A DNA stretch of 64,000 bases, from NCBI GenBank assembly GCA_964016885.1, contig OZ024747.1, positions 63,550,001 through 63,614,000 of the forward strand. The letters are read 5' to 3'. How positions within the stretch are numbered: the stretch's first letter is position 1; the number at the start of each line of letters is the position of its first letter. The translations under genes were made by a program, and so were the position numbers. The notes beneath the pieces are model-generated. The model was not told the origin of the DNA. It saw nothing but the letters and a program-made list of their open reading frames with translations, and did not search any database. Below are positions 17,431 through 61,464 of this stretch, piece by piece. This DNA is from Eledone cirrhosa. Taxonomy: Eukaryota.

Positions 17431-17437
<7 letters not shown>

Positions 17438-17661
17438 ATACTTTGGGAGGGTCATGTTGCCAATAAGAAACACACGCACCAGTTGCTTTCACTTCAATTT
17501 ATTATAATAAATTTATAAATTTAGGAATTTTATAATAAATTGAAGTGAAAGCAACTGGTGCGTGTGTTTCTTATTGGAAACATGACCCTCCCAAAGTATA
17601 ACAATATCGGTTTCAATACACGTTTTCAGATAAAGAATCTTCCTAAACAAATTCAGAAACG

Positions 17662-17664
<3 letters not shown>
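17431..17664. mobile_element. Fold-back remnant of Penelope-like family P1 (short arm plus long arm)
   Basis: Inverted arms 17431-17507 and 17530-17606 with an extension to 17664. Same sequence as the ends of 25358-26591, flanked by (TA)n. Confidence 0.9.
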
Positions 17665-17696
<32 letters not shown>

Positions 17697-17806
17697 TCCA
17701 GTTCCTCAGTGAAATAACAACCCAACCAGGAACTAGGTATATCAGAGTATTGACAAAATTATACGCCTCAACAACATATGTACTTGTCTATACCACACTA
17801 ATTCGG

Positions 17807-17861
17807 ACTGCCTGAAGAGGTCACAGCCAAAGATGGCTGTCACTGAAATATATATAGCAGT
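17807..17861 (+). ncRNA. Type I hammerhead ribozyme
   Basis: actgc CTGAAGA ggtcacagcc-aaagat-ggctgtcact GAAA tatata TA gcagt. Stems I and II and a palindromic stem III are present, followed by aataaa. It lies in a segment of about 220 nt flanked by (TA)n. Confidence 0.9.
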
Positions 17862-17906
17862 AATAAACAAAGCTAAATTTTAAACATTTGACTTCTTATT
17901 TAACTT

Positions 17907-17948
<42 letters not shown>

Positions 17949-18031
17949 ATATATATATATATATATATACACATATATGTGTGTGTGGGTGTATATATAT
18001 ATAAATATATATATATATGTGTATATATATA

Positions 18032-18088
<57 letters not shown>

Positions 18089-18113
18089 GTGTGTGTATAT
18101 ATCTATATATATC

Positions 18114-18155
<42 letters not shown>

Positions 18156-18186
18156 CGTATATATATATATATATATATATATATAC

Positions 18187-18270
<84 letters not shown>

Positions 18271-18410
18271 ATTAAAATTGGTGCTCTGAAATAGTGATGT
18301 GTATATGAATGTATATATAGTGTATTTGGCAATACACAGTATGCTTAATTAAAAGCATTTTGAAGACCTTACGCTATTGTTTTAAAGTAGTGACTATGTC
18401 ACTTATTTCT

Positions 18411-18503
18411 TTTTCCAACAAACAAAGGGAGTTAAGCTGACAGATCTCTGTTTCATACTGTTGGTATTCCTCAGAGCTTAACACTCCCCTTGTTTGTTGA
18501 AAA
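18411..18503 (-). ncRNA. Type I hammerhead ribozyme with GUC cleavage site and long stem I
   Basis: Minus strand reads gttaagct CTGAGGA atac-caaca-gtat GAAA caga-ga-tctg TC agcttaac (core 18431-18482). Stem I is extended by caacaaacaaggggag / ctccctttgtttgttg. Confidence 0.9.
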
Positions 18504-19095
18504 TTATGTATGTTGGATTCTTATAGAATTCCAGTACTAATCAGGAACTGATTATACAGAGTGGTTGCCGGTCCAGCAAAAATTGAAAATTAGAATTAAG
18601 TAGACATGTCTCTATCCTATATATACGCACTACCTCCTGATAGACTCATGACTTAGCTATGACATTATGCATAAGTAGATGTACTTAAATCTTCCTATAT
18701 ATAGCTAATACATATGATACGTTCATGACATTCATGATATTATGAATAAGTAGTCATGTCTCTATCTTATATAAATTTGTGTTTATCTATTACACCATGT
18801 AATTTATCTGTAATTTAGTAATTTCATGCTCCCATCTATTGTATCAGTACAATGTTAAAATCTAGAAAGCCTCCAGCTACTGCTATTTAATGGAAAGCTG
18901 TTAACATTATTTTACAGTCGACTTTATATTTTCCCTAATAAGAAAAATATCTACTCCATTTTTGTGTACATGCACGTGTTTGTGTCTGTGTGTGTGTGAG
19001 CAATGTGTGTGTGTTTCTATGTGTGTATGTTTCTCTGAGTGTCTATTTGTGTATTAGAGTGTATGTCTATCTATGCATGTGTTAGTGTGTATCTC

Positions 19096-19132
<37 letters not shown>

Positions 19133-19519
19133 CTGTATGTATGTTTGACTGTGCATGTGTTTGTGTGTCTCTGTCTGTGAATGTGCTTGTGTGTGTGTGT
19201 GTGTGTGAATGTCTGTATTCTATGCATGTGTTAGTGTGTGTGTTTGTGTGCCTGTGTGTATGTCTGTCGGTGAGTGTGTGTCTGTCTGTGCATGTGTTTG
19301 CGTGTCTGTGTGTAGGGATGTGCTTGTATATGTATGGGTGTGTTTAGGCTTATGTGTGTGTATATGTATATATGTTAGTGTGTGTGTGTTTTAATATGTT
19401 CCTTTGGAATATATTTTTTTTCCTAACTCTCTAAACATGTCTACATCAACTTGAAAATTTTAAGTGAAAGGTTTAATAAGATAATTGTTTCTACTTTTGG
19501 CACAAGGCATAATAATGAA

Positions 19520-19645
19520 AATTATTGTGTACAGTGTTCAGGTGCAGTTCATCAAAAGTGCATATATAGTACATAGAATATTGTACAAATGTCAGGAAAG
19601 TGAACAGTGTATGAGTGATGATATATATACACAGATACATGTGAT
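19520..19645 (+). repeat. Interspersed repeat of unknown class (also about 20660-20780 reverse and 56690-56800)
   Basis: aattattgtgtacagtg.tcaggtgca...catagaata.tgtacaaa.gtcaggaaa.tgaaca.t.tatgagt occurs three times. Confidence 0.75.
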
Positions 19646-19891
19646 ATTTGATATGGAAATGTTAGAGGTACCTTATGTTTTGTATGGAACTGGTACAAGT
19701 AACACATGTCTAGTATGGATCTGGTACAGGCACCACATGCTTGGTATGGAACTGGTACAATTACCACATGTTTAATATGGGACTGAGACTGGAATCATAT
19801 GTTTGGTATGGAACTGAACTAGTATTACATATCTGATATGGAACTGGTAGAGACAGTTTGGTATCAAAATGGTTTAAACACTTATTGTAAT

Positions 19892-20290
19892 GAAGGCACA
19901 TGGATTAGTGGTTAGAGCATAGGGCTTGCAATCGAAAGGTTGTGAGTTCAATCTCAGACTGGGGTGATGTGTTGTTTCCTTGAACAAGACACTTTATTTC
20001 ACATTTCTCCAGTTTATTCAGCTGTAGAAATGAGATGATAGGGACTGGGGTCCATATCATTCCACTGCAAAGTGGTCGTAGAGGTGCCACGGCAAAAAAG
20101 CACCCAGCACTCACTGTAAATGAGGTTGGTGTTAGGAAGGGCATCCAGCTGTAGAAATCAAGCCAGAATCAGTTCCCATATGAGCAAGAGAAGGTCAGCT
20201 GACCGGACACTGCCCACAACAGGACAACCCGTCTAACCCATGCTAGCATTGAAGAATGGACGTAAAACGGTGATGATGATGATGATGATG
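19892..20290 (+). mobile_element. SINE family B: tRNA-like head, ccttga.caagacact core, RTE-derived 3' tail (type 1)
   Basis: Head tggattagtggttagagc...gtgagttcaatc. The 3' approximately 220 nt match the RTE 3' UTR (about 39320-39575, with an internal deletion) and end in (GAT)n. Confidence 0.9.
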
Positions 20291-21727: not shown

Positions 21728-22839
21728 AACTAACAGACGTTTGATAACATTAACAACAAAATCTTCACACAGAAATGTCATATCAAATATAGAATATTTC
21801 CACTGTTTTGTACATAATTTAGAATTATTATATAAGATAAGATCCATTAAAATATTTATTTTTATAATATCCATTAGCTACACCCTCAATCAACTCCCTC
21901 TCTCTCTCATGCACTCTTTCCCTCAATCTAAGTTCACTACCAAAGTTATATTATTATCTCTCTCCAGAGTGAGCCTTGGATTTCCATTTTCAGAATACCA
22001 AGAGAGAGTCTATTATACATAATCTTTTCTCTCAAGCAATATTTCAGATTTGTACTTGTTATCAATCTATAATAAACTTTAACAACATACAGTTTGTGTT
22101 GGACAAGCAGGAAAATGTTAGTTAAGTAGTTGTAGTGGCTGACTGGTGATATTAGCAGCAAATCTGGCAGTAATCTGCCTTCCCTCTCTGCCAAACATTA
22201 AGTAGCCTTACAAAGAAAAGCAGGATAATTTCAAATTGATTTTGTCTGCAGTAATAGTCAGTGCTAAGTGTAAGTAATTTAAATAGTGGAACTGTAAGCA
22301 TTATACATTACTTAGCTATCTGTGTAGTTTATGGAGCTTAGGAATGGCATTAAAAACTCAATATTTATGTTTTCGACCTCTTCCAAACAGATTCTGGATT
22401 GGAAAAACATTGCTGTGAAACAATATTGTTATTATTTTCTTTATTCTCTAATTATTTTATTTTACTCTTTCACTAGTGTCATTCAGTTCACTAAAGCCAT
22501 GCTGAAGGGGTCTAGTCAAATTTATTGACTCTTTTCTTCTTTAGTCTGATACTAACTTCATCTATCTCTATTTTTCAAAATGCTAAGTTGTGAGACACGA
22601 AGAACAGCATAAACACACACTGATGATGATGGTGGTGGTGGTGGTGTTGGTATTGGTAGTGATGGTGGTTGTGGTGGTGGTGGTGGTCAGCTTGTTACAA
22701 TTAGGGTCAGGTCTTATTCAGAAGCTCTGCTCTCATATACAGCTCAGAAAACCACATCTTGCTCATATGTTGGCATGGTTTCTATAGCTAGATGTCCTTT
22801 GTAATACCAACTACTTAACAATTGGTTCAATAGAGATGT

Positions 22840-23258
22840 TGTATGTCCTTGACAAGTCTAAAGTTCTCTCTCTACCTTACATTGCTTCCCATGGAGAGGA
22901 TGTATGTCCTTGACAAGTCTAAAGTTCTCTCTCTACCTTACATTGCTTCCCATGGAGAGGATGTATGTCCTTGACAAGTCTAAAGTTCTCTCTCTACCTT
23001 ACATTGCTTCCCATGGAGAGGATGTATGTCCTTGACAAGTCTAAAGTTCTCTCTCTACCTTACATTGCTTCCCATGGAGAGGATGTATGTCCTTGACAAG
23101 GCTAAAGATCTCTTCCTACCTTACACTGCTTTCCATGGAGAGGTTGAATCTCCTTGACAAGACTAATCAGCTCTCTCTACCTTACACTGCTTCCCATAAA
23201 GAGGATGAATCTCCTTGACAAGACTAATCAGCTCTCTCTAACTTACATTGCTTCCCAT
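22840..23258. repeat. 61-bp minisatellite, about 7 copies
   Basis: Unit atgtatgtccttgacaagtctaaagttctctctctaccttacattgcttcccatggagagg, with starts 61 bp apart (22842, 22903, 22964). The first four are identical and the last ones diverged. Confidence 0.95.
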
Positions 23259-24545: not shown

Positions 24546-25326
24546 GGACAACGTGACCCTCTCCAAATATATCAATATTTATTATATTCTCAGCCATATT
24601 CTTCTAATAAACATCAACCACTGAAAATTAAATTAGCTTTTGTTTTTATTTAAGATGAAAACAATGAAAATTGTATTACTATTGGTTTTGTTGTTATTAT
24701 TTTTTATAGTGTCAATATGTCATTCAGAGCCATTGGTATACCTACATATGCACACACATACACACACATACACAGACATACAAATACATGTGGACACGCA
24801 AACATACACATCCACACTGGCACACACAAACACACAATACATACACACTGGCACGCACATAAACACTGGCACACACAAAGACACAAATATTATACACACA
24901 CAAATACTCACACACATATATATATATATATATTTAATAAAAGTTCATGCTTTTTATCTTGTTAGTGAAAGGTGGTGGAAGGTTACATTATGTTGCAGGG
25001 TGGGTCTTCTTCAGCATATAAGTGTGTGTGTATGTATATATATATATTAAATTTAAGTGAGAAAAAACTCTATTTATGGGAGTACAAATCAGATAGACAA
25101 AAAAATTATCATATTTTGTGTATCTAGTAATCTTTAATATATATATATAAATCAGTATAGAACCAGCTTAAAACTAGTTAGATCATTACTCAACAGAGTA
25201 CTTGATACTTGATGTAGTAGAGTATGGCTATACTCTAAAGAGTCGGAAACCCGATAGCTGAGCTCTTGCCATTCCAACAGCTAGCTAGCTGAAATGGCAA
25301 GAACTCAGTTGTCAGGCTCTGACTCT

Positions 25327-25357
<31 letters not shown>

Positions 25358-25577
25358 CGTTTCTGAATTTGTTTAGCAAGATTCTTTATCTGAAATCGTG
25401 TGTTGAAACCGATATTGTTATACTTTGGAAGGGTCATGTTGCCAATAAGAAACACACGCACCAGTTGCTTTCACTTCAATTTATTATATATTTATAAATT
25501 TATAAATTTACAAATCTACAAATCTATAAATTTCTGGTTGGTTGGTTGGTTCCACAACCAGATAGTTGTTTATATAT

Positions 25578-25622
25578 AGTCATAGTCCTTTCGTCACACA
25601 CTCTGTGACCTCTTCAGTGACT
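25578..25622 (-). ncRNA. Minimal hammerhead ribozyme (inverted pLTR copy)
   Basis: Exact reverse complement of 26381-26425. Confidence 0.8.
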
Positions 25623-25838
25623 GGGGATTCCTTTCTTTGTTTCTGTGCCTTTCCTTTCTTCTGTCCTACGCCATTTTGTTTCTGTGTGTGTGTTGTGTGC
25701 TCAGTTTGCGCATGCGCCACATCCGGGTGTCTGTGTGTGTTTGTGTTCATTTATCTATTTGTTTATTTATTTAAAAATAAACTCAATATTTATTTAAACA
25801 TAAACTCAATATTTATTTAAACATAAACTCAATATTTA

Positions 25839-26315
25839 TTTAAACATAAACTCAATATTAAGATAGTAGAAAGACCAGGTACCTCCATAAAAACACTTAT
25901 TAGCAAGACATACCCGTTTCAAAGACCCTCATGTATAGATAAGAAATGTATAACCTGTAAAATAAGCCCCCATATTAACTGTAAAACTAGAAACGTAGTG
26001 TATAGCATAAGATGTACTGAAGGACAATGTAGAAACAAAAATATAGTGTACATAGGTGAGACAGCTCGTAGTATAGGGGAACGGATAAATGAACACTGGC
26101 GAGACCTTCAAGATAATAAAGAATCATCTGTACTCTACCAACATGCTAAGATAGAACACAAGGGTAAATTAGAGAACATAGAAATAAAAATAGAATCTAC
26201 ACACAGAAAAGATGCAATGTTTAGACAAATTACAGAGGCAATAAACATAAAAGAATTACAACCAAAATTAAATAGAAAATATGAGTGGAACAGCAACATC
26301 ACAACTTACAATTAA
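25839..26315 (+). pseudogene. C-terminal Cys-rich linker plus GIY-YIG endonuclease of a Penelope-like element (Naiad-like by motif recall)
   Basis: Open frame KLNIKIVERPGTSIKTLISKTYPFQRPSCIDKKCITCKISPHINCKTRNVVYSIRCTEGQCRNKNIVYIGETARSIGERINEH...RQITEAINIKELQPKLNRKYEWN*. The VVY...YIGET..R..EH...E...N signature is intact, with no internal stop. Confidence 0.9.
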
Positions 26316-26380
26316 GGACAAAATGAAAACACACACACACATAGAACAAACAACCAACCAATAACATGTAAAGAATCCCC

Positions 26381-26425
26381 AGTCACTGAAGAGGTCACAG
26401 AGTGTGTGACGAAAGGACTATGACT
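26381..26425 (+). ncRNA. Minimal hammerhead ribozyme in pLTR
   Basis: agtca CTGAAGA g gtcaca-gagtg-tgtgac GAAA ggac TA tgact. Stem III is the quasi-palindrome AGGACT. Confidence 0.8.
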
Positions 26426-26585
26426 ATATATATAAACAACTATCTGGTTGTGGAACCAACCAACCAACCAGAAATTTATAGATTTGTAAATTTGTAAATT
26501 TATAAATTTATAAATATATAATAAATTGAAGTGAAAGCAACTGGTGCGTGTGTTTCTTATTGGCAACATGACCCTCCCAAAGTAT

Positions 26586-26637
<52 letters not shown>

Positions 26638-26929: not shown

Positions 26930-26969
<40 letters not shown>

Positions 26970-26976
<7 letters not shown>

Positions 26977-27378
26977 AGATCAAAAGATGGTTAAAGGAGT
27001 TCCATGTATTTTATTATGCGCATTTCAAAAACAAACATCATCATGCAATAATATTTGTGTTTTCATCAGATAAAACAGGAGAACATGATATGAAGGCTAA
27101 AAAACACTTGTGGATAGTGCAGTTTTAAATCAACATATCCACTGCACTATCCACAAGTGTTTTTTAGCCTTCATATCATGTTCTCCTGTTTTATCTGATG
27201 AAAACACAAATATTATTGCATGATGATGTTTGTTTTTGAAATGCGCATAATAAAATACATGGAACTCCTTTAACCATCTTTTGATCTTATATTATGCATA
27301 CTCCAGTCCTACAAACTGTAGAGTGCTTCTTATCCGATATCTGCATTGCTTTATTGTACTACAATAAAACTCACCTCC

Positions 27379-27381
<3 letters not shown>
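26970..27381. mobile_element. Fold-back (TA)n-flanked element with apparently perfect 154-bp arms and a hammerhead
   Basis: Arms 26970-27123 and 27141-27294 with a 17-nt spacer. The right side extends about 87 nt before (TA)n. Confidence 0.9.
27187..27257 (+). ncRNA. Type I hammerhead ribozyme (mirror copy on minus strand at about 27007-27077)
   Basis: ttttat CTGATGA aaacacaaatattattgcatgatgatgtttgttttt GAAA tgcgca TA ataaaa. Stem II relies on G-U pairs, and stem III contains the palindrome TGCGCA. Confidence 0.9.
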
Positions 27382-31217: not shown

Positions 31218-31218
<1 letters not shown>

Positions 31219-31594
31219 GGTTTGAAGGTTCACCACTAGATGGAGTTGGTCATTCCATATGGTCAATCTTGATGTAATAATATGGAGAGTACTCAACATA
31301 AAGCTGCTTAACTGTCTTTGTGTAGTTTGTGGTCGAGTAGGGAGTTAATTATTATAATAAAATAATAGGAAGCTGGACTTGTGCAAATCCTTGAAAGGTT
31401 TATTATACTATGATCATTTCAATGACCGGATTCCGTATGAATCCGGTGATATCATCAGGTATTCGAAATATAATAAATGAATATATTTCGAATACCTGAT
31501 GATATCACCGGATTCATGCGGAACCCGGTCATTGAAATGATCATAGTATAATAAACCTCTCAAGGATTTACACAAGTTCACCCTCCTGTTATTT

Positions 31595-31600
<6 letters not shown>
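31218..31600. mobile_element. Fold-back (TA)n-flanked element with a hammerhead in each arm
   Basis: Arms at about 31353-31471 and 31482-31600 with several mismatches. The left side extends about 135 nt. Confidence 0.85.
31492..31549 (+). ncRNA. Type I hammerhead ribozyme (mirror copy on minus strand at 31405-31462)
   Basis: atac CTGATGA tatcaccggattc-atgcg-gaacccggtcatt GAAA tgatca TA gtat, with palindromic TGATCA in stem III and aataaa immediately downstream. Confidence 0.88.
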
Positions 31601-31630
<30 letters not shown>

Positions 31631-31634
<4 letters not shown>

Positions 31635-31974
31635 TCATCATTTCATTTCATTTTACGTCCGCTTTTTCCCTGCTTGCAAGGGTGGGACAGAAACTGATTC
31701 TGGCTTGATTTCTACAGCTGGATGCCCTTCCTAACACCAACCTCATTTACAGTGAGTGCTGGGTGGTTTTTTGCCGTGGCACCTCCACGACCACTTTGCA
31801 GTGGAATGATATGGACCCCAGTCCCTATCATCTCATTTCTACAGCTGAGTAAACTGGAGAAATGTGAAATAAAGTGTCTTGCTCAAGGAAACAACACATC
31901 ACCCGGTCTGAGAATTGAACTCACAACCTTTCGATTGCAAGGCCAATGCTCTAACCACTAAGCCATGTGCCTCC
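31631..31974 (-). mobile_element. SINE family B with type 2 RTE tail
   Basis: Same head and body as 19892-20290, but it ends gtcccacccttgcaagcagggaaaaagcggacgtaaaatga. Confidence 0.9.
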
Positions 31975-32976
31975 ATTTTACATATCTCTATATATATTTA
32001 TATATATATTTGTGTGTGTATAAATATATATCTGTACAACCCATGCCAACCTAGAAAATGGATTTAAAATGATGATGATGATTGTTTATGTGTGTGTTAA
32101 TATTTACATCACAATAAGACTTGTGAGAAAATCAGATAATCTTTTACTAAATACTTTTTTCTCCATATGTTTCTAAGTCATATACAGAGATTTTTTCATC
32201 ACTAAAGTAAATTATTGTAAATCTGAATAAACTTAATGATTTCATATAGATTTAAGACGACACAAGAATAAGTCTAGTTATAATTTTAAAAAACTTGCAC
32301 TTAAACTCTCAAATAGTCTTCCACCAAAATTATCATTTTATTTTTCAAACGTACATGTTCTTTGTGAATCTCCAATATGGTTCAATCTTCTTGGAACACT
32401 CTATTCTTAGTGAAAGAATTCATTTTGAAAGACTTCAAAGTGTTTTATTCTTACAGCATATGATATATTCTGATAAGAAAAGGCTGGATTTTGTGTTGGC
32501 TCATTATTTGTTTTCAAACAGCTATAACCAAAAAAAATACTATTATTGGTGTACATGTTAAAAACGTATTCCATGCAAATACAATACATTATTCGTATGT
32601 GTGTTTGTGTGGATGTATATATATATATATACACACACACACATATATATATGTATGGGTGTGTATGTATAATTATATGGTGCATATATATATATATATA
32701 TATACATTATGACAAAAGACCAAGGTTAACAACTTACGTTCGTTCTTTAATTTCTACATTTCTTTCCATTTGGTTACAATTGTACATGGATATGTAAACA
32801 ACTGGAAATAATTAATTATACATAAATCCATACATATGTGTGTGTCATCATCATCATCATCATCATCGTTTAACGTCCATCTTCCATGCTAGCATGGGTT
32901 AGATGGTATATATTGTTAATAAATGAAACAAACAAAACACAGGAGACAATTTTTATACGGTTTATGCTTGGTACAT

Positions 32977-33105
32977 CGTTTTTGTATCTGTTTTGCAAGA
33001 AACTTGATGTGAAATTGTGTGTTGATTCATATATTGTTATACTTTGGAAGTGTCATGCTGCCAATAGAAACACACGTACTAGTTGAGATACCTTCAGTTT
33101 ATTAT
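32977..33105 (-). mobile_element. Diverged family P1 pLTR end
   Basis: tattgttatactttggaagtgtcatgctgccaatagaaacacacg aligns with 25358-25490. Confidence 0.75.
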
Positions 33106-34500
33106 TACTAATAATTCAAAATCCCGCCGAGGTTAACTTTGCCTTTCATCCTTACGGGGTCGATAAAATAAAGTACCAGTAATGCACTGGGTAATTGCTG
33201 GCCTTGTGCCTAAAGTAGAAACAATTATTACTAATAATTCATTAGTTATGTATCTAATCCATTCCCTGGTTAATTTAGTAACCGGATGGTGATTTAATTG
33301 TCATATTTATTTTCTGAATGTCAAACATCTCTTTTCTTTTATCCTGTGACCTTTTTAATGACTCTTTGCGTTCCTCAGTTCCTCTTCTTTATTCTGATCT
33401 TGTTATATTTAATCCATCTTGTCATTGTGTGCTGTGTACGTAGTCTACATATGTGTGCGAGTTTGTGCCTGTTAGTATGTGTGTGTGTGTGTGTCTTTGC
33501 TGTTACTTTGGCAAGCTTCTATGTTTGACATGTGTATGCATGTGAATGTGTTTCTGTGCTTGTATGTATGTCTTTACATTTTATTTCCTCATGAGCATGT
33601 GCTTGTCTATTTTTTTAAAATGTTTACTTGCTCTATCATCTGTCACTTGGTAGTTGTTTAGTTTCTGTATTCTCTGTATATGTGAGGAGGTGATGGGTCA
33701 TGTGTGTTTGTGTATACTTTAATCCTTTTTGAAACTATTATGCTACTATAAGTCACAGCCGATATCTTTCAAATAAATTTGAAACTAATCAAGTATTTGA
33801 AGGAATTTAGTAACCCAAACTAACTTTGTCATTATTAAGATGGTGTTTGGAACATAACAGAGGTTCATATATAGAATTATGATGGAGGGTTTTTAAATAA
33901 TTATAAGCAATTCCAAATAAACAGATTAGTATCATAGATGCAGAAACAGTTTTAGGCAGTTTTGTAAAAGAAGTATTATGTCTGTTCATTCTATTAAACT
34001 CCAAGAGTAACCCCAGTTTCTCAGAATTCTCTTCAGAAGTAATTTATTCCATAGTTCCTTATCTGTTTTACAAAAGGTCAAACAGTTATATCTATTGAAT
34101 ATTGATCTGCTATAAAGGAAGGAAGAAGACACACAACATATCACAAGTGTACTATATGTGCCAAAGCTACTAAATTATATTTAGAACAGAAATAATCCAT
34201 CTATCTGAGAAATATTTGTTTACAAACAATCTTCAACCTTTAAAGGAATAATTTATTTCCCTCTCTTTGCACACCCACTGAATTATTCTGACATTAACAT
34301 TTATATATATATATATATAAGGTTATAGTGTAGTACTTCACTATTTTATTGGCCAGCTGAGATAAGCTCAATGCACTTTACCATCCTCTGTTCTTCAGCA
34401 GTAGAAAGAAACTGAATGAATTAAGGGCAGTTCAGGTAGCCGGGCATTTAAAATTCAAATTTTAAGAAAGCTTTCTTAAAATTTGAATATATATATATAT

Positions 34501-34848
34501 ATCATCATTTTCATCATCATTTCATTTTACGTCCGCTTTTTCCCTGCTTGCAAGGGTGGGACGGGAACTGATTTTGGCTTGATTTCTACAGCTGGATGCC
34601 CTTCCTAACACCAACCTCATTTACAGTGAGTGCTGGGTGCTTTTTTGCCGTGGCACCTCCACGACCACTTTGCAGTGGAATGATATGGACCCCAGTCCCT
34701 ATCATCTCATTTCTACAGCTGAGTAAACTGGAGCAATGTGAAATAAAGTGTCTTGCTCAAGGAAACAACACATCACCCAGTCTGAGAATTGAACTCACAA
34801 CCTTTCGATTGCAAGGCCAATGCTCTAACCACTAAGCCATGTGCCTCC
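34501..34848 (-). mobile_element. SINE family B with type 2 RTE tail
   Basis: Nearly identical to 31631-31974. Confidence 0.9.
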
Positions 34849-35795: not shown

Positions 35796-38700
35796 AATAT
35801 TAATATTATTGCTGTTTTTGCTGTATTATTTCGGATATTTACCACGCTGTATTCTAATCTATCGGTTATTTAAGTTTGTTAGCCTTGACGGCGACCCTCA
35901 GTGCATACCTCACAATTTCCCTCCCACTCACCCCCTCACACGACCATAGACTATTCGACCAATCAAACCTCACCGTGCCATTTCTACTGTTGTTACTACT
36001 ACTTCTACTACTACCTAACTAACTCTCTCCTCCCCTGTCGCAGCCCAACATACCCTGCCATTATCCCACCACCACTGTTCTTCTAGCCCTCAATTTTCCC
36101 ACCATTATGGATGGATGAGCTGAGAATAAATTTGAGCAACTCTGAATCAATAGATGAAATATGAATCTGCGAGCTACCAAGCACCCATGTGAAGCGCCAA
36201 CCCAGAAACCCTTCCCTACGAGTGTCGACAAATGCCCAAAACTCCGAGTTGGTACCATCAATGTAGGCTCAATGAAAGGAAGAGCAGGAGAAATCGTAGA
36301 AATGCTAGAGCAAAAGGAAATTGATGTAGGCTGTGTGCAAGAGACTAGATGGAGAGGAGAGTCTGCCAGAGTCCTGGTAGGAAAAAGTCGGTGCTACAAA
36401 TTTTTCTGGGTGGGAAATGACGATGGGATGGGTGGTGTAGGTATACTACTAGCTGACAAGTGGGTAGATAAAGTAATCTCAGTGTACAGGGTAAATGCAA
36501 GAATCATTAAACTCAGACTAGTCCTGAATAAAACAATTACCACATTAATATCAGCTTACGCACCCCAATCGGGGCTGCCAGACGAACTTAAGGATAGGTT
36601 TTACGAGTCCCTAATGCACACTACTGCTCTAACAGACGACAATGACTTCCTAATCATCGCAGGAGATTTTAACGGACACGTAGATAAACACTGCGACGGC
36701 TTCAATAGAGTACATGGAGGCCATGGAGTTGGCACAAGAAATGAGGAAGGATTCAGACTTCTAGAATTCTGCGACGCCAATGACATGTCGATATGTAACA
36801 CAAACTTTAAAAAACCCGACAACCACCTGATCACCTATAGATCAGGGGAGCACTCCAGTCAGATAGATTTTATCCTTATCAGAGGACGTGACAGATAGAC
36901 GGTTGTAAACACAAAAGCCTTCCCTAGTGAGGAATGTACATCCCAACATAGCTTAGTTGTCAGCAACCTCACGGTCAGAACTAGACGAACCTGGAAACAG
37001 AGGCCAACCTGGAGAAGAAAGATCTGGAAGCTGAAAGCCCCCTCAACCAGTAACAGATTTAAAGATATTTTACTCAACGCCTACGACAGTAAAGAAGAAC
37101 AGATACAGACATTTATTGTAGAAGAGAACTGGGAGTTCCTAAAAAATAATATACTAGAGGTGACAGATGAGGTCTGTGGCTGGAGTAAGACCTTAAGCAG
37201 GAGGAGAGTGCCTTGGTGGTGGAACAATAAGGTAGATGAAGCAGTTAAGGCCAAGAGACAGGTATGGAGAGAATGGAAGAACGGGGGGAGCAGGGTACAT
37301 TACATAGAGACCAAGAGGGAAGCTAGGCGACAAGTATACTTAGCTAGGAGGGAAGCAGAGGATAGAAAATTCAAGCATGTTTTGCAACATGAGGACCAGA
37401 AACAGGAGGTATTCAAGATTGCGAGGCAGTGTGTCAGAGATAGTTGTGATGTCATTGGAGAGAAGTGTATCCGGAATGATACAGGTGAGCTTGCCCTCAC
37501 AAGTGCTGAGAAGAAAGATGCATGGAAGAGTCATTATGATAGATTACTAAATGAGGAGAAATCATGGGAAGAAGAGACCCTACCCCAAGTAGACCCTATA
37601 GAGGGGCCAGCAGTACAAGTCAGCAGCAATGTAGTAAGTAAGGCAATCAAAGATATGAAGATGGGGAAGGCAACCGGTCCATCGGGTATAGCTGCCGAGA
37701 TGCTGAAGGCATCTGGGTCTGTAGGTCACACTATAACCACACGTATTGTTAACCAGGTAATACTAGAAGGTGTCATACCAAAAGATTGGTGCAGTAGCAT
37801 CATTGTCAACTGCTACAAAGGTAAAGGCGATGCACTAGATAGAGGAAACTATAGAGGTATAAAGTTGATGGACCAGGTCATGAAAGTAACAGAAAGAGTT
37901 ATAGCACAGTTGATTAGGGACCGGGTGAAAATAGACGAGATGCAATTTGGGTTTGTACCAGGAAGAGGCACCACTGATGCCCTCTTCCTTGTGAGACAAT
38001 TACAGGAAAATTACCTAGCTAAAAGTAAGCCACTCTACTTGGCATTTGTCGACCTTGAGAAAGCCTTTGACAGAGTTCCAGGTGCTGTAATCTGGTGGGC
38101 TCTTAGAAAACTAGGAGTAGATGAATGGCTTGTGAAAGCGGTACAAGCCATGTATAGGGAAGCAGTCAGCAAAGTTAGGATTAGCAATGAGTATAGCGAG
38201 GAATTTAGCGTACAGGTTGGGGTCCATCAGGGCTCTGTTCTTAGCCCTCTCCTGTTCATTATAGTCCTGCAGGCAATAACGGAGGAGTTTAAGACCAGAT
38301 GCCCATGGGAACTCCTGTATGCTGATGACCTCGCACTCATAGCTGAATCTATGGTAGAACTAGAGAATAAATTCCAAACTTGGAAGCAGGGACTAGAAAG
38401 AAAGGGTCTCAAAGTCAACATGACAAAGACTAAGGTCATTATAATTAGACGAGAAAACAGAACCCAGATCCCCTCAGGGAAATGGCCTTGCTCATTATGT
38501 AGGAAAGGTGTAGGTAGAAACTCCATTCTCTGCCCCAAATGCAAACAATGGGTACACAAGAGATGTAGCGGGTTCTCAGGAAGCTTAATTACGAATGTAG
38601 GCTTCACATGCAGCAGCTGTGCTGAGACAGCAAGCAGCAAACAGCCACATGAAACAAGTACCACCAATCTCTGGGAGGGATCTGTAGAAACAGTAGACAG

Positions 38701-39590
38701 CTTCTGCTAGCTAGGTGATCGAATTAGCAGCGGAGGTTGGTGTTCAGAAAGTACAATAACTAGGGTAAGAACGGGATGGAAGAAGTTTAGGGAACTACTG
38801 CCACTGCTAGCTGCAAAAGGCTTCTCCCTCAGAATGAAAGGCAGACTGTATGTATGATGCGTGTATCCGAACAGCAATGTTGCATGGTAGTGAGACCTGG
38901 GCGCTGAAGGTGGAAGACTTACGTAGATTAGAGAGAAACGAAGCCTGCACGCTCCGATGGATGTGTAACAGTAATATACGTGAACGACAAAGCATAAATG
39001 AATTGAGAGAGAGACTGAGCATAAGAAGAATCAAATGCTGTGTGCAGGAGAGGCTTTTGCGCTGGTATGGACATGTGATGCGTATGAAGGATGACAGCTG
39101 CATAAAAAGGTGCAGAGCACTAGAAGTTGATGGATACCGCGGAGTGGGGAGACCCAAGATGACCTGGGATGAGGTGATAAAAGCCGACCTTACCCAAGTA
39201 CATCTCTCAAAGGCAATGACACACGACCGTGACCTCTGGCGTCACGCAGTAATACAGAGTACCCGACCTCCCATGGGTACAAGCTGAAGCATATAGACAA
39301 TATGCCCCCACAGCCCACACTGCAAGGTGGTCGTGGAGGTGCCACGGCAAAAAAGCACCCAGCCCATACTGTAAAGTGGACGTGTAGGCACCACGAAAAA
39401 GCACCCAGCACTCACTGTAAATGAGGTTGGTGTTAGGAAGGGCATCCAGCTGTAGAAATCAAGCCAAATCAGTTCCTGTATGAGCAAGGCATGGTCAGCC
39501 GACCAGACACTGCCCACAACAGGACAACCCGTCTAACCCATGCTAGCGTGGAAGAACGGACGTAAAACGGTGATGCTGATGATGATGATG
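35790..39590 (+). mobile_element. Near full-length RTE-clade LINE (about 3.8 kb)
   Basis: 5' UTR following (TA)n, a single APE-RT frame, and a 3' UTR ending ggacgtaaaacggtgatgctgatgatgatg. Confidence 0.97.
36161..39287 (+). pseudogene. RTE ORF: AP endonuclease, reverse transcriptase and Cys/His finger, with three lesions
   Basis: APE motifs CVQETRW, SAYAPQ, AGDFNGH and IDFIL. RT motifs FVDLEKAFDRV, GVHQGSVLSP and LYADD. TAG at 36896-36898 (TGG in the paralog at about 51120), TAG at 38708-38710 (TAC in paralogs) and a 4-bp gtat duplication at about 38850. Confidence 0.95.
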
Positions 39591-40665: not shown

Positions 40666-41201
40666 ACCAAATCATCAAATTGTTGTAAAGTGAGGAGTGT
40701 TTGTAGGTTGATTTTTCTGGCTGTTTATTTCACAGTGAATCAGTAAAGTTGTTAGATCGTTGGGGGTTTCCTGCAGCTCTCTGTATTGCATTCTGTGCTC
40801 TACATTCATTTTCAGCTATGGTCATCTTTCTTTTCATCCATTTAGCTTTGATAAATACATTACCAGTCTAGTGTAGTGCAGGGGGTTATTTGGATTGTTA
40901 CAGAGACAAACAGGTTCCTTTGTGGAATTTGATCTATCTTTGTGTTCAGAGTTCAAATGTCACCTCCTACTGCCAGAAGATGTGACCAGCAGTAAATATT
41001 AACAATGGAAAGATCTATGAAAACCTAACTTATTTAGTCTGATCTATCGTTCAGCCCCAGTCTGTTTTCTGTTTTATTTTGTTTTTTATTTCACTTTTTC
41101 CTAAGAAAGAAATATGTCACTTCAGTTATTTTGCAAAGCCATTACTATATCATCATCATCATCATCATTTTACATCTGCTGCTGATGATGATGATATAGT
41201 A

Positions 41202-41234
<33 letters not shown>

Positions 41235-48417: not shown

Positions 48418-48511
48418 GTTATGCAAGAAATGCTTAGGATAATGCTGAATGCAGTAATGGTTAATTACTACACTAGATGGAGCCGACGTATAGTGAGGGG
48501 TTACATATATA

Positions 48512-51135
48512 TATCATCATCATCATCATCATCACCGTTTTACGTCCGTTCTTCCATGCTAGCACGGGTTAGACGGGTTGTCCTGTTGTGGGCAGTGTCT
48601 GGTCGGCTGACCATGCCTTGCTCATACAGGAACTAATTCTGGCTTGATTTCTACAGCTCGATGCCCTTCCTAACACCAACCTCATTTACAGTGAGTGCTG
48701 GGTGCTTTTTTCCGTGGCGCCTACACGTCCACTTTACAGTGTGGGTTGGGTGATTTTTTGCCGTGGCACCTCCACGACCACTTTGCATTGGGAGGGTGTG
48801 GGGGAATATTGTCTATATGCTTCAGCTTGTACCCATGGGAAGTCGGGTACCCTTACTGCATGACGCCAGAGGTCACGGTCGTGTGTCATCGCCTTTGAGA
48901 GGTGCAATTGGGTAAGGTCGGCTTTTATCACCTCATCCCAGGTCTTCTTGGGTCTCCCCAATCCGCGGTTTCCATTGACTTCTAGTGCTCTGCACCTTTT
49001 TATGCAGCTGTCATCCTTCATACGCATCATATGTCCATACCAACACAACCACCTCTCCTGCACACAGAATTTGATTATTCCTCTTATGCTCAGTCTCTCT
49101 CACAATTCATTTATGCTTTGCTGTTCGTGTATATTACTATTACACATCCATCAGAGCCTGCAGGCTTCGTTTCTTTCTAATCTACGTAAGTCTTCCACTT
49201 TCAGCGCCCAGGTCTCACTACCATGTAACATTGCTGTTCGTATACATGCATCATACAGTCTGCCTTTCATTTTGAGGGAAAAGCCTTTTGCAGCTAGCAG
49301 TGGCAGTAGTTCCCTAAACTTCTTCCATCCCGTTGTTACCCTAGTTATTGTACTTTCTGAACACCCACCTCCACTGCTAATTCGGTCACCTAGGTAGCAG
49401 AAGCTGTCTACTGTTTCTACAGAGCCCTCCCAGAGATTGGTGGTATTTGTTTCCTGTGACTGTTTGCTGCTTGCTGTCCCAGCACAGCTGCTACATGTGA
49501 ATCCTACATTCTTAATTAAGCTTCCTGAGATCCCGCTACATCTCTTGTGTACCCATTGTTTGCATTTGGGGCAGAGAATGGAGTTCCTATCTACACCTTT
49601 CCTACATACTGAGCAAGGCCATTTCCCTGAGGGGATCTGGGTTCTGTTTTCTAGTCTACTTACAAGGACCTTAGTCTTTGTCAGGTTGACTTTGAGACCC
49701 TTTCTGTCTAGTCCCTGCTTCCAAGTTTGGAATTTTTTCTCTAGTTCTACCATAGATTCAACTATAAGTGCGAGGTCATCTGCATACAGGAGTTCCCATG
49801 GGCATCCGGTCTTAACCTCCTCCGTTATTGCCTGCAGGACTATGATGAAGAGGAGAGGGCTAAGAACAGAGCCCTGGTGGACACCAACCTGTACCTAAAT
49901 TCCTCGTTATACTCATTGCTAATCCTAACTTTGCTGACTGCTTCCCTATACATGGCTTGTACAGCTTTCACAAGCCATTCATCTACTCCTAGTTTTCTAA
50001 GAGCCCACCAAATTATAGCACGTGGAACTCTATCAAAGGCTTTCTCAAGATCGACGAATGCCAGGTAGAGTGGCTTATTTTTAGCTAGGTACTTTTCCTG
50101 TAACTGCCTCACAAGGAAGAGGGCATCAGTGGTGCCTCTTTCTGGTACAAACCCATCTCATCTAGTTTCACCCAGTCCCTAATCAACTGTGCTATAACTC
50201 TTTCTGTTACTTTCATGACCTGGTCCATCAGCTTTATACCTCTATAGTTCACCTTTACCTTTGTAGCAGTTGACAATGATGCTACTGCACCAATCTTTTG
50301 GTATGACACCTTCTAGTATTCCCTAGTTAACAATACATGTGATTATAGTGTGACCTACAGACCCAGATGCCTTCAGCATCTCGGCAGCTATACCCGATAG
50401 ACCAGTTGCCTTCCCCATCTTCATATCTTTGATTGCCTTACTTACTACGCTGCTGCTGACTTGTACTGCTGGCCCCTCTATAGGGTCTACTTGGGGTAGG
50501 GTCTCTTCTTCTCATGATTTCTCCTCATTTAGTTATCTATCATAATGGCTCTTCCATGCATCTTTCTTCTCAGCACTTGTGAGGGCAAGCTCACCTTTAT
50601 CATTCCGGATACATTTCTCTCCAATGACATCACAATTCTCTCTGACACACTGCCTCGCAATCTTGAACACCTCCTGTTTCTGGTCCTCACGTTGCAAAAC
50701 ATGCTTGAATTTGAATGTAATGTACCCTGCTTCTCTTTCTTCCATTCTTTCCATGCCTGTCTCTTGGCCTTAACTGCCTCATCTACCTTATTGTTCCACC
50801 ACCAAGACACTCTCCTCCTGCTTGTGGTCTTACTCCAGCCACAGATCTCATCCGTCGCCTCTAGTAAGTTATTTTTTAGGAACTCCCAGTGCTCTTCTAC
50901 ATTGAATGTCTCTATCTGTTCTTCTTTACTGTCATAGGAGTTGAGTAAAATATCTTTAAATCTGTTACTGGCTGATTGGTCTTTCAGCTTCCATTTCTTT
51001 CTTCTCCTGGTTGGCCTCTGTTTCCAGGTTCGTCTAGTTCTGCCGTGAGGTCGCTGACAACTAAGCTATGTTGGGAGGTACATTCCTCACTAGGGAAGGC
51101 TTTTGTGTTTACGACCATCCATCTGTCACGTCCTC
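48512..51135 (-). mobile_element. 5'-truncated RTE LINE (about 2.6 kb), same family as 35790-39590, more decayed
   Basis: ORF pieces 50533-50754, 49840-50112, 49151-49753 and 48734-49063 match the RT, with several indels, the same 3' UTR and a (GAT)n tail. Confidence 0.96.
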
Positions 51136-52441
51136 TATATATATATGAGCATATACTTACATAGATTTGTAGCTCCTTATCTGAGAGAAATGATTCTAAA
51201 AATATTTTAGAAGAAGAATGCATCGTGTGGCATTGAAATAGGATTACATTGTTTCAGTGACCCATCCATTCCAATGTAAACTGCTCAAAGATCAACGAGA
51301 CACTCAATAGAAGTGTATGTGTGAATGTATTCTTCTAACACTACATATACATGAAATGGTAATATCTTTTCTGTGTCTCTGTACTGAAGGAGGCAAAAAA
51401 AAAGAGAAGATTGTTGCATCTATTATATCTATTTATAAGAGGAACAAAGGAAGCTGGTAAGAATACAAAACTATTTACAGAAATTCTAGCAATGTGCATG
51501 TCTGTAAACTTTGCTGAATAGCCATCATCATGAAAACATTGAGTTGATAAACACATACTTAGTAGAAATGCCATCAAAGACTACTTATTAGATATAATAT
51601 AGTTGAGTACCGTTTTCTTATACAAGAAAGTTGGTAAAAAGAACAGCACGTGATAACATTAGTAAGGAAGTGGTGAAACTACTATTACACTGTTGAAAAC
51701 TGACAAAAGAAATTCTCTTCATTATTACGTTTCTTATTAAATTACTGTTTTCAAAATTATTGATAGATAATAGCATAATATTCAGTTTTGTGGATTTATT
51801 ATTTTAACTGTAGTTCTTTTATATTAGTGAAGGCACGTGGCTAAGTGGTAAAAGAATTAGATTCAGAATCATGAGGTTGTAAGTCCAATTCTTGGACTGG
51901 GCGATGCATTATGTCCTTGAGCAAGACACTGTATTTCACATTGCTCCTTCTACCTTGAGTTGCGACTGATAGAAAGTATTGGCAATTAAAAGACCAATGG
52001 AAACATTGTTTCCTCGGTCTGATTTGACAAAAGTCAATCGACTATATATATATATACTTATCTATCTATCTACCTATCATTATCATATCATCATCATCAT
52101 CCTTTAATATTCCTTTTCCCAGCTAGCATAGAGAATTACTAACCACTAGACCACTTGAGAAATATATATATATATATATATATTCATTAAAAACAACAAC
52201 AGAAGGCTGGATTGGAAATAATTATAATTTTAATTTTAATTCCACATAAACACCATACATGTTTCAAAGGCCCAGCTTCATCAACAGAATATGATGCAAG
52301 ACCCAGATTATTTCATCAAGTGTTAATTGCAGAATTAGTTATATAAGAGAACAGGATTTGGGTGAACACAAACAGAAAATAGAAAATAGAGGATCAATTT
52401 TAATCTGGAGATGGCCCACTGATTCCGTGTTATTGTAAGTG

Positions 52442-57864: not shown

Positions 57865-58252
57865 ATAATTGTTTCTACTTTTGGCACAAGGCCAGCAATT
57901 ATCCAGTACATGACTGGTACTTTATTTTATCGACCCCGTAAGGATGAAAGGCAAAGTTAACCTTGGCGGCATTTGAACTCAGATCATAAAGGGACATAAC
58001 TCTATGCATCAAAGCATGGTATCCGACTCTCTACCGATACTGCCAATCCACCGCATAATAATAATAATTGTTTCTCCTTTAGGCACAAGGCCAGCAATTA
58101 CCCAGTGCATTACTGGTACTTTATTTTATCGACCCCGTAAGGATGAAAGGTAAAGTCAACCTCGGCGGGATTTGAACTCAGATCATAAAGGGACGTAACT
58201 ATGCTGGAAAGCATGTCGTCCGACCCTCCACCGATACTGCCAATCCACCGCA
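57865..58252 (-). mobile_element. Tandem dimer of SINE family A
   Basis: Two complete copies (about 57865-58055 and 58067-58252) separated by (AAT)n. Confidence 0.88.
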
Positions 58253-58544
58253 TAATAATAACAATAATATATATATATGTGTGTGTGTGTGCGTGCATAC
58301 ATCTTAGGGGCTCCATATGCTGCAAGGAAAGTAATGCATTTAGGAGAGGAATCACTGAATAAAAGGTTGTACAAGGTAGAAATGACTCTTAAGTCATGGC
58401 AGGCACCCTTGAACAGCATTGGTGGTGTTGAGAGGGGAGGCTGGTATGCATGGATGACTGCTGGCTTCTATAAATAATCTTGCCCAGACTTGACCCTCAG
58501 AGTGGAACTTTCCTTTCTAGGTGTAAATCTCATGGTCGTTACCC

Positions 58545-58604
<60 letters not shown>

Positions 58605-59685
58605 AAGTAAACAGAAGTAACCAAGCAAACAACACAATACAATGAAGAAATATATTTGTTTAACACTTGAAATAATAAGAAAAGAGTCTTGATATTTCGA
58701 ACACTAGTTCTTTACCAGAAGATAGAATGAGAAATAAAAGATGAAAAGATAAAGAGTGAGAAGAGCAAGGTATGAAAAAAGAAAATTGAGGGAAAAAAAA
58801 ACCCAGAGACTATATATATAGTGAAAAGTTAGTGCATGGTGGCTGAGTTGATGTGGTTATGTATCTCAGACTCTAGCTTTCTATTTCAGACATTTTGTTT
58901 CTAATGTAGCAGTATCTCCAATACAGAAATACAGATGCCATTTAATGCCATAAATAACATCACTTCACTTCTCAGCTTCACTGAACTTAGTCAATCCATT
59001 CAGCTATTAGTGAATTGCACCTCATCTACTTAACCAATAATTGATTCTAGCCAATTACTTTTAAAATCAACATTATTTTGATATATAATTTTCTATAAAT
59101 TGAAATATTGATATAATTTTTGTTTTAACTTTCTAAGAGATTGTTTTTGTTTCTTTATAGTGTTGTAAAAATAGTGTAGTTTTTTAAGTTTCTCCTCCTC
59201 CTACTACTGTTGCTAATGATGTAACAGTGTGTGTACATTTATTTGTGCCTTAGTGGTTCAAAGTTTTGACTCACAATTGTAAGGTCATGAATTTGATTCC
59301 TTACAGCACATTGTGTCCTTAAGGAAGACACTTTATTTCACATTGCTCCAGTCCACTCATTGGCAAAAATCAGTTGTATCTGCAATTTAAAAGGTCAGTT
59401 TGCCATGTACTGTGTATGATACACTGAATTTCCCTGAGAACTACATAAGGGTGCAAATGACTGCAGAATATTCAACAGGCTGTTCCATTGTTTGAACAAC
59501 TGAAACACTCATCATAGGAACTGACAAACCATACAACAACAACAATATATACTTTAATTTTCATTCATTATTTTTAATGGCAGTATCGGTAGAGGGTCGG
59601 ACACGATGATTTGACGTATAGAGTTACAGGCCCTTGCCATTCTGAGTTCAAATCCCACCGAGGTTAACTTTGCCTTTCATCCTTA

Positions 59686-60100
59686 CACACAAGGATACAG
59701 TGGACCTATCCCAAGCCAGATAAACACAGAGATGCAGCATATCTATTTCAAGCCAGATACACGCAAGGATACAGTGGACCTATCCCAAGCCAGATAAACA
59801 CAGAGATGCAGCATATCTATTTCAAGCCAGATACACACAAGGATACAGTGGACCTATCCCAAGCCAGATAAACACAGAGATGCAGCATATCTATTTCAAG
59901 CCAGATACACGCAAGGATACAGTGGACCTATCCCAAGCCAGATAAACACAGAGATGCAGCATATCTATTTCAAGCCAGATACACACAAGGATACAGTGGA
60001 CCTATTTTAAAGCAGATATACACAGGGATGCAGTGTACCTATTATAAACCAGACATACTTTGTGATTCAGTGTATTTATTCTAAATCAGATGCACACAGA
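59686..60100. repeat. 74-bp minisatellite (dimer of 37-bp subunits), about 4 perfect units then decaying, replacing the 3' half of a SINE A (59577-59685)
   Basis: aaggatacagtggacctatcccaagccagataaacacagagatgcagcatatctatttcaagccagatacac(a/g)c with period 74. Confidence 0.92.
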
Positions 60101-60841
60101 ACAATATCCACTACAATAGCTATTAAAGTTAGTTTCATTAGTTTTTAAATCTCGTAATATCTCCAGATACTTAAATTCTCTGACTCATTAACTACAACAT
60201 AAGAAACTAGAAGCAATTCTTGGAATATCAAGAAAATACTGTCTAGAATTGGTAAATAATTGGTATAGGTAGATAAGTAGAAAGTTTTAAACTGGAAGCA
60301 CACAAGTTTCAATTATTTTTAGACACACTAATGGGAATTTTTGGTAAAAATTGTTAAATTATCTACAAATATTTCTGATTTTCCTGTTTCTTATTAAAAA
60401 TTAATTTTCAGCAATTGCATTTATTTTTTATTTGAGGAGTTCTCCAGGTATGAATGTGTGATGTATGTATATATTCCAGTACTGAAAAATACAGACATAA
60501 AATGATGTTGATCATCATCATCCTAATTATTCCATGTCATTTTAGGTGTTCAGTCTATCACTCTCTGCCCTTCCCTCTTTCTTTTGTTGCTTAATAATCC
60601 TTGCCTTATCCCTCCTTTTCTTCTCATTTATAGCATTTATAGGTTTTCCAATTTCTCTCTCTTGCATGTGTGTATGTATATATATATATATATCAGATGG
60701 TTGGTGTTAGGAAGGGCATCCAGCTGCAAAAAACGCTGCCAAAATGTAGCTCCATTTGAGTAAGGTACAGCATGGCCAACTAATTTGCATCGAGGGGTTG
60801 TTGGTTAGCAATCAATATTATTTTATAGATCGATATTTACA

Positions 60842-60880
<39 letters not shown>

Positions 60881-60883
<3 letters not shown>

Positions 60884-61461
60884 TGTTATACTTTGGGAGG
60901 GTCATGTTGCCAATAAGAAACACACGCACCAGTTGCTTTCACTTCAATTTAATTTAATATATATTTATAAATTTACAAATTTATAAATTTCTGGTTGGTT
61001 GGTTGGTTCCACAACCAGATAGTTGTTTATATATATATAGTCATAGTTCTTTCGTCACACACTCTGTGACCTCTTCAGTGACTGGGGATTTCTTTCTTCG
61101 TTTCTGTGCCTTTCCTTTCTTCTATCCTACGCCATTTTGATGACAAACAAAATGGCGTAGGATAGAAGAAAGGAAAGGCACAGAAACGAAGAAAGAAATC
61201 CCCAGTCACTGAAGAGGTCACAGAGTGTGTGACGAAAGAACTATGACTATATATATATAAACAACTATCTGGTTGTGGAACCAACCAACCAACCAGAAAT
61301 TTATAAATTTGTAAATTTATAAATATATATTAAATTAAATTGAAGTGAAAGCAACTGGTGCGTGTGTTTCTTATTGGCAACATGACCCTCCCAAAGTATA
61401 ACAATATCGGTTTCAACACACGATCTCAGATAAAGAATCTTGCTAAACAAATTCAGAAACG

Positions 61462-61464
<3 letters not shown>
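60881..61464. mobile_element. Fold-back remnant of family P1: 259-bp arms, 8-nt spacer, about 58-nt extension
   Basis: Arms 60881-61139 and 61148-61406 appear perfectly complementary, with (TA)n on both sides. Confidence 0.92.
61204..61248 (+). ncRNA. Minimal hammerhead ribozyme (mirror copy on minus strand at 61039-61083)
   Basis: agtca CTGAAGA g gtcaca-gagtg-tgtgac GAAA gaac TA tgact. Confidence 0.78.

Follow-up and report, generated by a model that had tools for sequence, protein, structure and literature searches.

Penelope-like elements (PLEs) are known to insert with an inverted truncated copy and a tail of 30–40 bp, the tail often lying at one end only and being described as 'optional' (PMC8557442). 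For PAc, the Poseidon element of Anolis carolinensis, in vitro experiments have located two internal start sites of reverse transcription that delimit the tail, with both target strands cut and extended; the protein is predicted to act as a dimer, and hammerhead cleavage is dispensable (PMC11167929). The steps that follow initiation of reverse transcription are described there as unvalidated, PMC8557442 calls for mechanistic work on the inverted repeats and the tail, and PMC3846280 leaves the choice between a sense and an antisense template undecided. Here we describe P1, an element of Eledone cirrhosa that has, by its sequence features, the identity of a very abundant PLE with (AT)n as its target. 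Three copies lie in the 64,000-nucleotide stretch that we analysed (contig OZ024747.1, positions 63,550,001 to 63,614,000; hereafter the window), and we compared these with copies from the rest of the genome. P1 insertions with two formed ends pair a short end with a long one almost without exception, and both arms of edited insertions carry the same A>G changes. It is probable, in our judgement, that both cut strands of the target prime on one sense RNA, each at its own fixed site.

Each of the three window copies has (AT)n on both sides. The short (S) arm ends outwards at ...gtataacaat|(AT)n and the long (L) arm extends 55–57 nucleotides (nt) past it, to ...cagaaacga(aa)|(AT)n, exactly where an earlier note on this DNA had placed three copies with one short and one long arm. 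Copy 1 consists of an S arm at 17431–17523 (minus strand), with its outer end in (AT)n, and an L arm at 17508–17664 (plus strand) whose tail occupies 17608–17664. In copy 2 the L arm (25358–25773, minus) comprises the tail (25358–25411), the pseudo-long terminal repeat (pLTR) and part of the 3′ untranslated region, with a hammerhead-like core at 25589–25617; its S arm (25841–26593, plus) holds the 3′ end of the open reading frame (ORF), an internal deletion and the pLTR, with a second hammerhead-like core at 26386–26414. The S arm of copy 3 (60880–61139, minus; 260 nt) is 100% complementary to the L arm (61148–61464, plus), which carries a hammerhead-like core at 61209–61237 and a tail at 61408–61464, and which starts at the inner hot spot described below, immediately ahead of the motif CAAAATGGCG. 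The note had given shared arms of 77, 215 and 259 bp; BLAST returned about 94–100, 224 and 260 bp, in approximate agreement for copies 2 and 3 and not for copy 1, where the shared arm is longer because an AT-rich self-palindrome lies at the centre. An older P1-related pLTR piece, about 80% alike and without clean (AT)n flanks, is found at 32972–33114 (minus).

The S arm of copy 2 encodes a C-terminal GIY-YIG endonuclease fragment at 25857–26312 (plus; PF01541, E 5.5e-5). A full P1 copy (L121 with L068) contains a single open frame of 919 residues, P0001 in L068, with reverse transcriptase (RT) motifs, plus a GIY-YIG at the C-terminus; its RVT_1 match (E 9e-4) falls short of the Pfam cut-off, and the profile match to GIY-YIG comes from the copy 2 fragment, the scan of the full-length frame having listed none. 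Comparison of P0001 with solved structures gave no match. A zinc-finger linker of the form CX4CxxC (CIDKKCITC) can be read ahead of the GIY-YIG, and a CCHH motif (C..C..H..H) comes after the linker. By the motif descriptions in PMC8557442, P1 would be a PLE of the Neptune or Nematis type, which share with it the order of RT and C-terminal GIY-YIG, a CX2-5CxxC linker and CCHH, and differ in having DKG where P1 has DKS. The Penelope/Poseidon clade is ruled out by the linker zinc finger in P0001, the Naiad/Chlamys clade by the C-terminal rather than N-terminal position of the endonuclease, and a miniature inverted-repeat DNA transposon by asymmetric ends, inner extents from 6 nt to several kb and the presence of RT-endonuclease sequence in the arms. 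The copies U121_068 and L139 show the partial-tandem and inverted architecture of PLEs, pLTR-tail-ORF-pLTR plus an inverted arm. Together, the fragment in copy 2 and the RT and endonuclease encoded by full copies bear out the relation to the inverted pLTR and 'tail' of Penelope that the note had proposed. In partial tandems the body of the element begins, past the pLTR, with the 58 nt that make up the P1 tail, and the sequence at S as well as at L is AATAT|CG. The pLTR contains a hammerhead-like core, CUGAAGA-stem II-GAAA with a closing stem I (fold z-score −0.5; no Rfam match), and folding of the tail region revealed no unusual structure (z −1.1 and 0.1).

Fixed ends and their pairing

A 26-nt core adjoining S has 25,602 exact matches in the host genome (3.0 Gb, AT-rich), the reversed control pattern having none. 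The tail follows 11,177 of these matches and (AT)n directly follows 12,428, which accounts for 23,605 of the 25,602. P1 arms terminate at one of two fixed sites, S or L, separated by about 58 nt, and the fixed outer endpoints seen in the window are no product of chance. Judged from coordinates only, head-to-head core pairs less than 5 kb apart were S/L in 43 of 48 cases (expected 0.5, p 6e-9).

Individual insertions were followed in 100 stretches of C1, drawn from the first 100 core matches listed, from pairs chosen by strand and distance and from 8 further single matches; 30 loci chosen with a tail-bearing query were excluded from every pairing count. With the window included, 189 P1 ends comprised 99 S, 86 L (81 of which share one alignment position) and 4 that continue into the element body. 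The list of 116 units outside the window was corrected by hand to 115, by merging L095, merging L102 with L103 around 3.9 kb of other DNA, and splitting L123. These comprise 72 S/L, 1 L/L, 1 S/S and 39 one-ended units, with 2 unclassified (an edge and a gap). Two-ended units are S/L in 72 of 74 cases, or 69 of 71 once three apparent local duplicates are removed, and the near-obligatory pairing that the note had proposed to look for is found. By hand count, the subset sampled without pair selection has 45 two-ended units (44 of them S/L) and 31 one-ended, among 76 that could be classified. S/L pairing is near-obligate once both ends form, and both form in only about 60% of units. The note's statement that P1 inserts as a palindrome consequently describes the two-ended overlapping units and fails for the many one-armed copies and for some with tiny, non-overlapping L arms.

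Either arm may be the longer. Among 59 simple S/L units (L128 was set aside as complex), the S arm reaches deeper inward in 22 and the L arm in 22, the remaining 15 agreeing to within 15 nt; U121_068 is the only one of the 22 S-longer units with an internal tail available for copying. In nine units the L arm matches only 6–22 nt of the element, has no overlap with the S arm and abuts the inner end of that arm, and one unit has a tiny S arm. Separately, very short S arms that end at about −30 to −40 (coordinates relative to S), often abutting a tiny L arm, recur in L088, L090, L107, L119, L123, L125, L135 and L137 and form a second inner hot spot.

Inner junctions are blunt, show 2–5 nt of microhomology or contain insertions, some of them local duplications, a measure that is crude in old copies. 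Of 26 junctions free of insertions, 16 have microhomology of at least 2 nt, compared with 13% of random joins. To judge from these sequences the junctions look like end-joining of two cDNA ends, and we take them to resemble polymerase-theta joints. The inner junction does not vary freely, as the note had supposed: 17 of 151 P1 arms end in the 20-nt bin from −280 to −261, with 3 and 0 in the neighbouring bins, and this hot spot sits just ahead of CAA(A/G)ATGGCG. A counterpart exists in Q1, one of three further families described below, where both arms of short pairs stop at one site in seven of nine cases, at TCATT ahead of AAGACGGC. We assume that the motifs at the P1 and Q1 hot spots are Initiator- and YY1-like. 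With the chances evenly balanced, the hot spot may represent run-off at a transcript start within the pLTR. The predicted hammerhead cut site shows no clear peak of inner ends (5 of 151 arms in that bin). In one further case, L102:913 to L103:5857, two near-full P1 arms that are 99.8% alike over 3.9 kb, with outer ends L and S, flank 3.9 kb of unrelated repeat DNA that was possibly captured between two cDNA ends.

Three other palindromes in the window, at 14690–15167 (Q1), 26969–27381 (Q2) and 31218–31601 (Q3), had been noted as unrelated and as having one longer arm. Both points stand at the level of sequence, yet these are families that follow the same rule, Q1 and Q2 being of Penelope type and Q3 putatively so. 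The tail is on the left arm in Q1 (about 137 nt) and Q3 (about 140 nt) and on the right arm in Q2 (about 89 nt), and these distances also separate the fixed short and long ends of each family. Exact pattern matches number 5,228 for Q1, 8,000 for Q2 and 4,446 for Q3, and head-to-head pairs are S/L in 16 of 17, 12 of 12 and 11 of 12 cases, respectively (39 of 41 in total), the exceptions being one S/S pair in Q3 and one Q1 arm that continues into the body. The ORFs of Q1 and Q2 encode RT-endonuclease proteins in which we read Hydra-clade motifs by eye, and by the descriptions in PMC8557442 both families would be of that type: they share with the Hydra clade an RW motif, DKT (seen in Q2 only), a CxCX5C linker, C-terminal CxxC and CxH, the lack of CCHH and a (TA)n target, and they differ in having RWT or RWR in place of RWK. 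No RT-endonuclease ORF was found in Q3 arms of up to 2.5 kb; the family resembles PLEs in obeying the S/L rule, in targeting (AT)n and in having a minimal hammerhead-like motif, which Q2 has too. Tails of about 58, 89, 137 and 140 nt in P1, Q2, Q1 and Q3, with a one-sided rule that is near-obligate among two-ended units, contrast with the 'optional' 30–40 bp given in PMC8557442.

We inspected Q1 in raw short reads from two further samples. Joints between opposite strands were present at the inner hot spot in 1 and 3 reads, and joints at two asymmetric places occurred in both samples (48 and 55 reads; 72 and 26 reads), with one start each; a loose (AT)n end at S was seen in one sample (440 reads). 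The note's suggestion that the palindromes be confirmed on raw reads is thereby answered for the folds of Q1, in few short reads. These joints lend modest direct support against an assembly artefact, and the structural evidence is the stronger.

Judged by titles and the opening of abstracts, we found no report of near-obligate S/L pairing counts in the literature that we covered, which takes in few of the subscription papers and stops short of the 2005–2006 Penelope reviews; the supplements of PMC11167929 and PMC8557442 may bear on pairing. The available portions of a retrozyme preprint, an octopus repeat paper and a killifish Neptune paper contain nothing on it, and the published PLE accounts, as far as the accessible text of PMC8557442 and PMC3846280 goes, give neither a pairing count nor a test of the template. 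The architecture of P1 is of a known kind; what is new is the evidence from shared edits, the finding that either arm may be longer, the L arms of 6–22 nt and the pairing count.

A>G edits common to both arms

Two sampled P1 units carry dense A>G changes in both arms, and three pattern searches added more. The test set comprises eight units whose arms overlap the edited stretch; three further edited units have partner arms that are too short, and L179, L182, L188 and L189 were left out of the analysis. Both arms carry the same sense-strand edits in all eight, with 197 of 209 sites shared and 12 discordant. Compared arm against arm, the Jaccard index is 0.86–1.0 in the six heavily edited units, and for the two units with light editing it is 0.67 and 1.0; between units its median is 0.24 and its maximum 0.54 (161 pairs). 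The first pattern search matched only its two source loci, and in none of the searches did a second locus show an identical set of edits. In six of the eight units it is the S arm that is longer. The edited fraction is 0.15 after G against 0.42–0.45 after T or A, a bias that matches the neighbour preference of ADAR and by which the edits fit an ADAR-like origin.

Since the changes read as A>G in the sense of the element in both arms, the template would be sense RNA. L187 provides a natural control: here a read-through RNA took along a pre-existing palindrome whose arms differ, one having A>G changes and the other T>C, unlike the eight edited units. The region concerned, L187:5374-8209, is about 3 kb long and includes a spacer in addition to a P1 palindrome and a further P1 arm; the P1 arms bear same-strand edits, T>C changes occur in an internal (AT)n tract, and the L end is clean. 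It looks like a retrotransposed read-through RNA with flanking DNA.

The edits are unevenly distributed along the element. Across 11 primed arms, A>G changes affect 171 of 486 and 75 of 216 A sites in bands from −280 to −71. The count falls to 1 of 254 in the band from −70 to 0, and in the tail it is 1 of 238, whereas 9 of 23 A sites from −70 to 0 are edited in the carried, unprimed L187 copy. We infer that the band from −70 to 0 is either shielded from editing or required to remain free of it, with the proviso that the pattern by which two of the arms were first detected lies inside that band; the paucity of edits in the tail is less telling because an S/L hairpin would leave the tail unpaired. 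A recognition element is likely to lie between about −70 and +58 around S. The hammerhead core is intact in 92 of 102 unedited arms and broken in 9 of 11 edited ones, and hammerhead cleavage would therefore be dispensable for insertion. P1 is like PAc in this respect and in having two start sites that delimit the tail; PAc belongs to a different clade, and the CX4CxxC linker is a feature of P1 (PMC11167929).

Unedited arm pairs differ at 301 of 17,449 shared columns; the arms are therefore not routinely homogenised. Arm-against-arm distances over short overlaps are mostly uninformative. In the literature covered, which lacks most subscription papers, we found no report of editing barcodes in PLE arms.

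Probable double priming on one RNA, and the alternatives

How would such insertions arise? We regard as probable a route in which a single sense RNA serves both cut strands of the target, one strand priming at S and the other at L, with subsequent joining of the two cDNA ends. A dimeric RT-GIY-YIG protein would cut both strands of (AT)n, and each 3′-OH would pair with a short AUAU at one of two sites on the RNA. The S primer would copy the RNA first, or simultaneously with the L primer, whose site would lie about 58 nt downstream of S on the same RNA; the L primer would copy the tail and then either stall, leaving a tiny arm, or displace the first cDNA. Each cDNA would halt at a variable point or run off the 5′ end of the RNA at the hot spot, the 3′ ends would be joined bluntly, at a microhomology of 2–5 nt or with some templated filler between them, and fill-in synthesis would supply the second strands. 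S/S and L/L units would be rare because one RNA offers each site only once. If one of the primers failed, joining of its partner to the remaining broken end would leave a one-armed copy. The earlier note had already suggested two oppositely oriented primings at two defined RNA positions on (TA)n, and the 72 of 74 S/L units, the 22 against 22 longer arms and the non-overlapping tiny L arms all support it. We hold with somewhat less assurance, though still lean towards, the broader view that PLEs of at least two clades use such fixed-site twin priming, copying one sense RNA twice to make each successful event a new palindrome, that double-stranded RNA from these palindromes is edited by ADAR, and that the edits become fixed as barcodes except in a stretch of roughly 130 nt, surrounding the priming sites, that the protein requires.

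A single priming followed by fold-back, in which the cDNA hairpins and copies itself and the second arm reaches the other AATAT by a template jump or by endonuclease trimming, strikes us as unlikely. Identical edits in both arms are expected from it as well, it predicts the excess of microhomology at insertion-free junctions, and it fits the 22 L-longer units and U121_068, whose S cDNA holds an internal tail; resolution of the tail by the endonuclease has been suggested (PMC8557442). It fares badly with the other 21 of the 22 S-longer units, which lack an internal tail to copy. Fold-back from an L start cannot give a longer S arm, and fold-back from an S start cannot give a tail unless one is internal (1 of 22), and two primings are therefore needed; where the S arm is the longer, fold-back would have to be supplemented by a short extra priming at L. 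The nine tiny L arms, moreover, have no sequence in common with the S arm, and two different routes would be required at equal frequency. Arm lengths and tiny arms favour a second arm read from the RNA over one read from the first cDNA.

That an asymmetric dimer holds two RNAs, with priming at S on one of them and at L on the other, appears improbable. It accounts for the pairing and for either arm being longer, and a dimer is predicted for the protein of a relative (PMC11167929). The shared edits would then have to come from an edited source locus or from conversion between arms; edit patterns differ between units (Jaccard at most 0.54) with no identical pattern at a second locus in the searches, none of the eight edited units is discordant, and the differences within unedited pairs show no routine homogenisation. 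We consider self-priming on an antisense RNA, which yields a head-to-head repeat and was proposed from palindromic junctions of rotifer elements (PMC3846280), to be very improbable: an edited antisense template would give T>C, whereas the edits of primed arms are A>G in the sense strand, with T>C at background level and absent from all 11 arms in the band that holds 171 of 486. That the palindromes are fold-back artefacts of assembly is scarcely credible, for although the arms of copy 3 are 100% complementary, four families have fixed asymmetric ends of different lengths, arms differ in sequence and content, junction insertions and tiny arms occur, and opposite-strand Q1 joints are present in raw short reads of two other samples.

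Several observations weigh against priming of both strands on one RNA as we have set it out. The L arms do not pile up at the S boundary, as a displacement barrier might produce. Genomic sequence does not allow a full distinction between two passes of the RT along one RNA and copying of one arm from the other at the DNA level; discordant edited sites number 12, too small a set, and one too near the background differences, to discriminate between copying routes, and the edited set is small and was partly found with patterns built from its first two members. Two successful primings are not obligatory, as the 31 one-ended units of the unbiased sample attest. The start sites of PAc, finally, showed no difference between strands in vitro and are called non-homologous to the target, whereas those of P1 are paired one per strand and carry AATAT (PMC11167929).

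Twin priming itself has a precedent outside PLEs. In LINE-1, an inversion with a microhomology joint results when a single RNA is used by two target primers; the upstream site at which the second primer anneals varies, and there is no overlap between the cDNAs. P1 cDNAs, unlike those of LINE-1, overlap into a palindrome because both sites are fixed and adjacent. With its thousands of events and natural RNA barcodes, this genome points to a sense template, a single RNA and one site per strand. P1 also maps a likely recognition element and yields a sharp prediction for the existing in vitro system, and PLE insertions would be a large source both of palindromes that arise de novo and of A-to-G edits returned to the DNA of the germline.

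Other repeats in the window and beyond

Different PLE families lie end to end within one (AT)n tract at L280:5225-5578, L284:6900-7700 and L125:2557, and each insertion therefore appears to offer targets to the next. In the window, a small inverted repeat at 16895–17008 (91% alike) has (AT)n at its centre, a layout unlike that of P1, and self-comparison revealed imperfect palindromes, 73–83% alike, at 25229–25336, 1952–2220, 10714–10793, 15554–15613 and 41141–41203. A tRNA-like match at 34778–34841 (Rfam, 29.9 bits) falls in a repeat family also present at 31611–32002 and 19889–20177 and is likely to be the head of a tRNA-derived short interspersed element. A repeat of about 2.7 kb occurs in two inverted copies, at 36881–39590 and 48502–51136 (92–93% alike), with a third, partial copy at 5823–7056. 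Minisatellite arrays with units of about 61, 74 and 80 nt occupy 22811–23258, 59684–60100 and 12778–13169, respectively.

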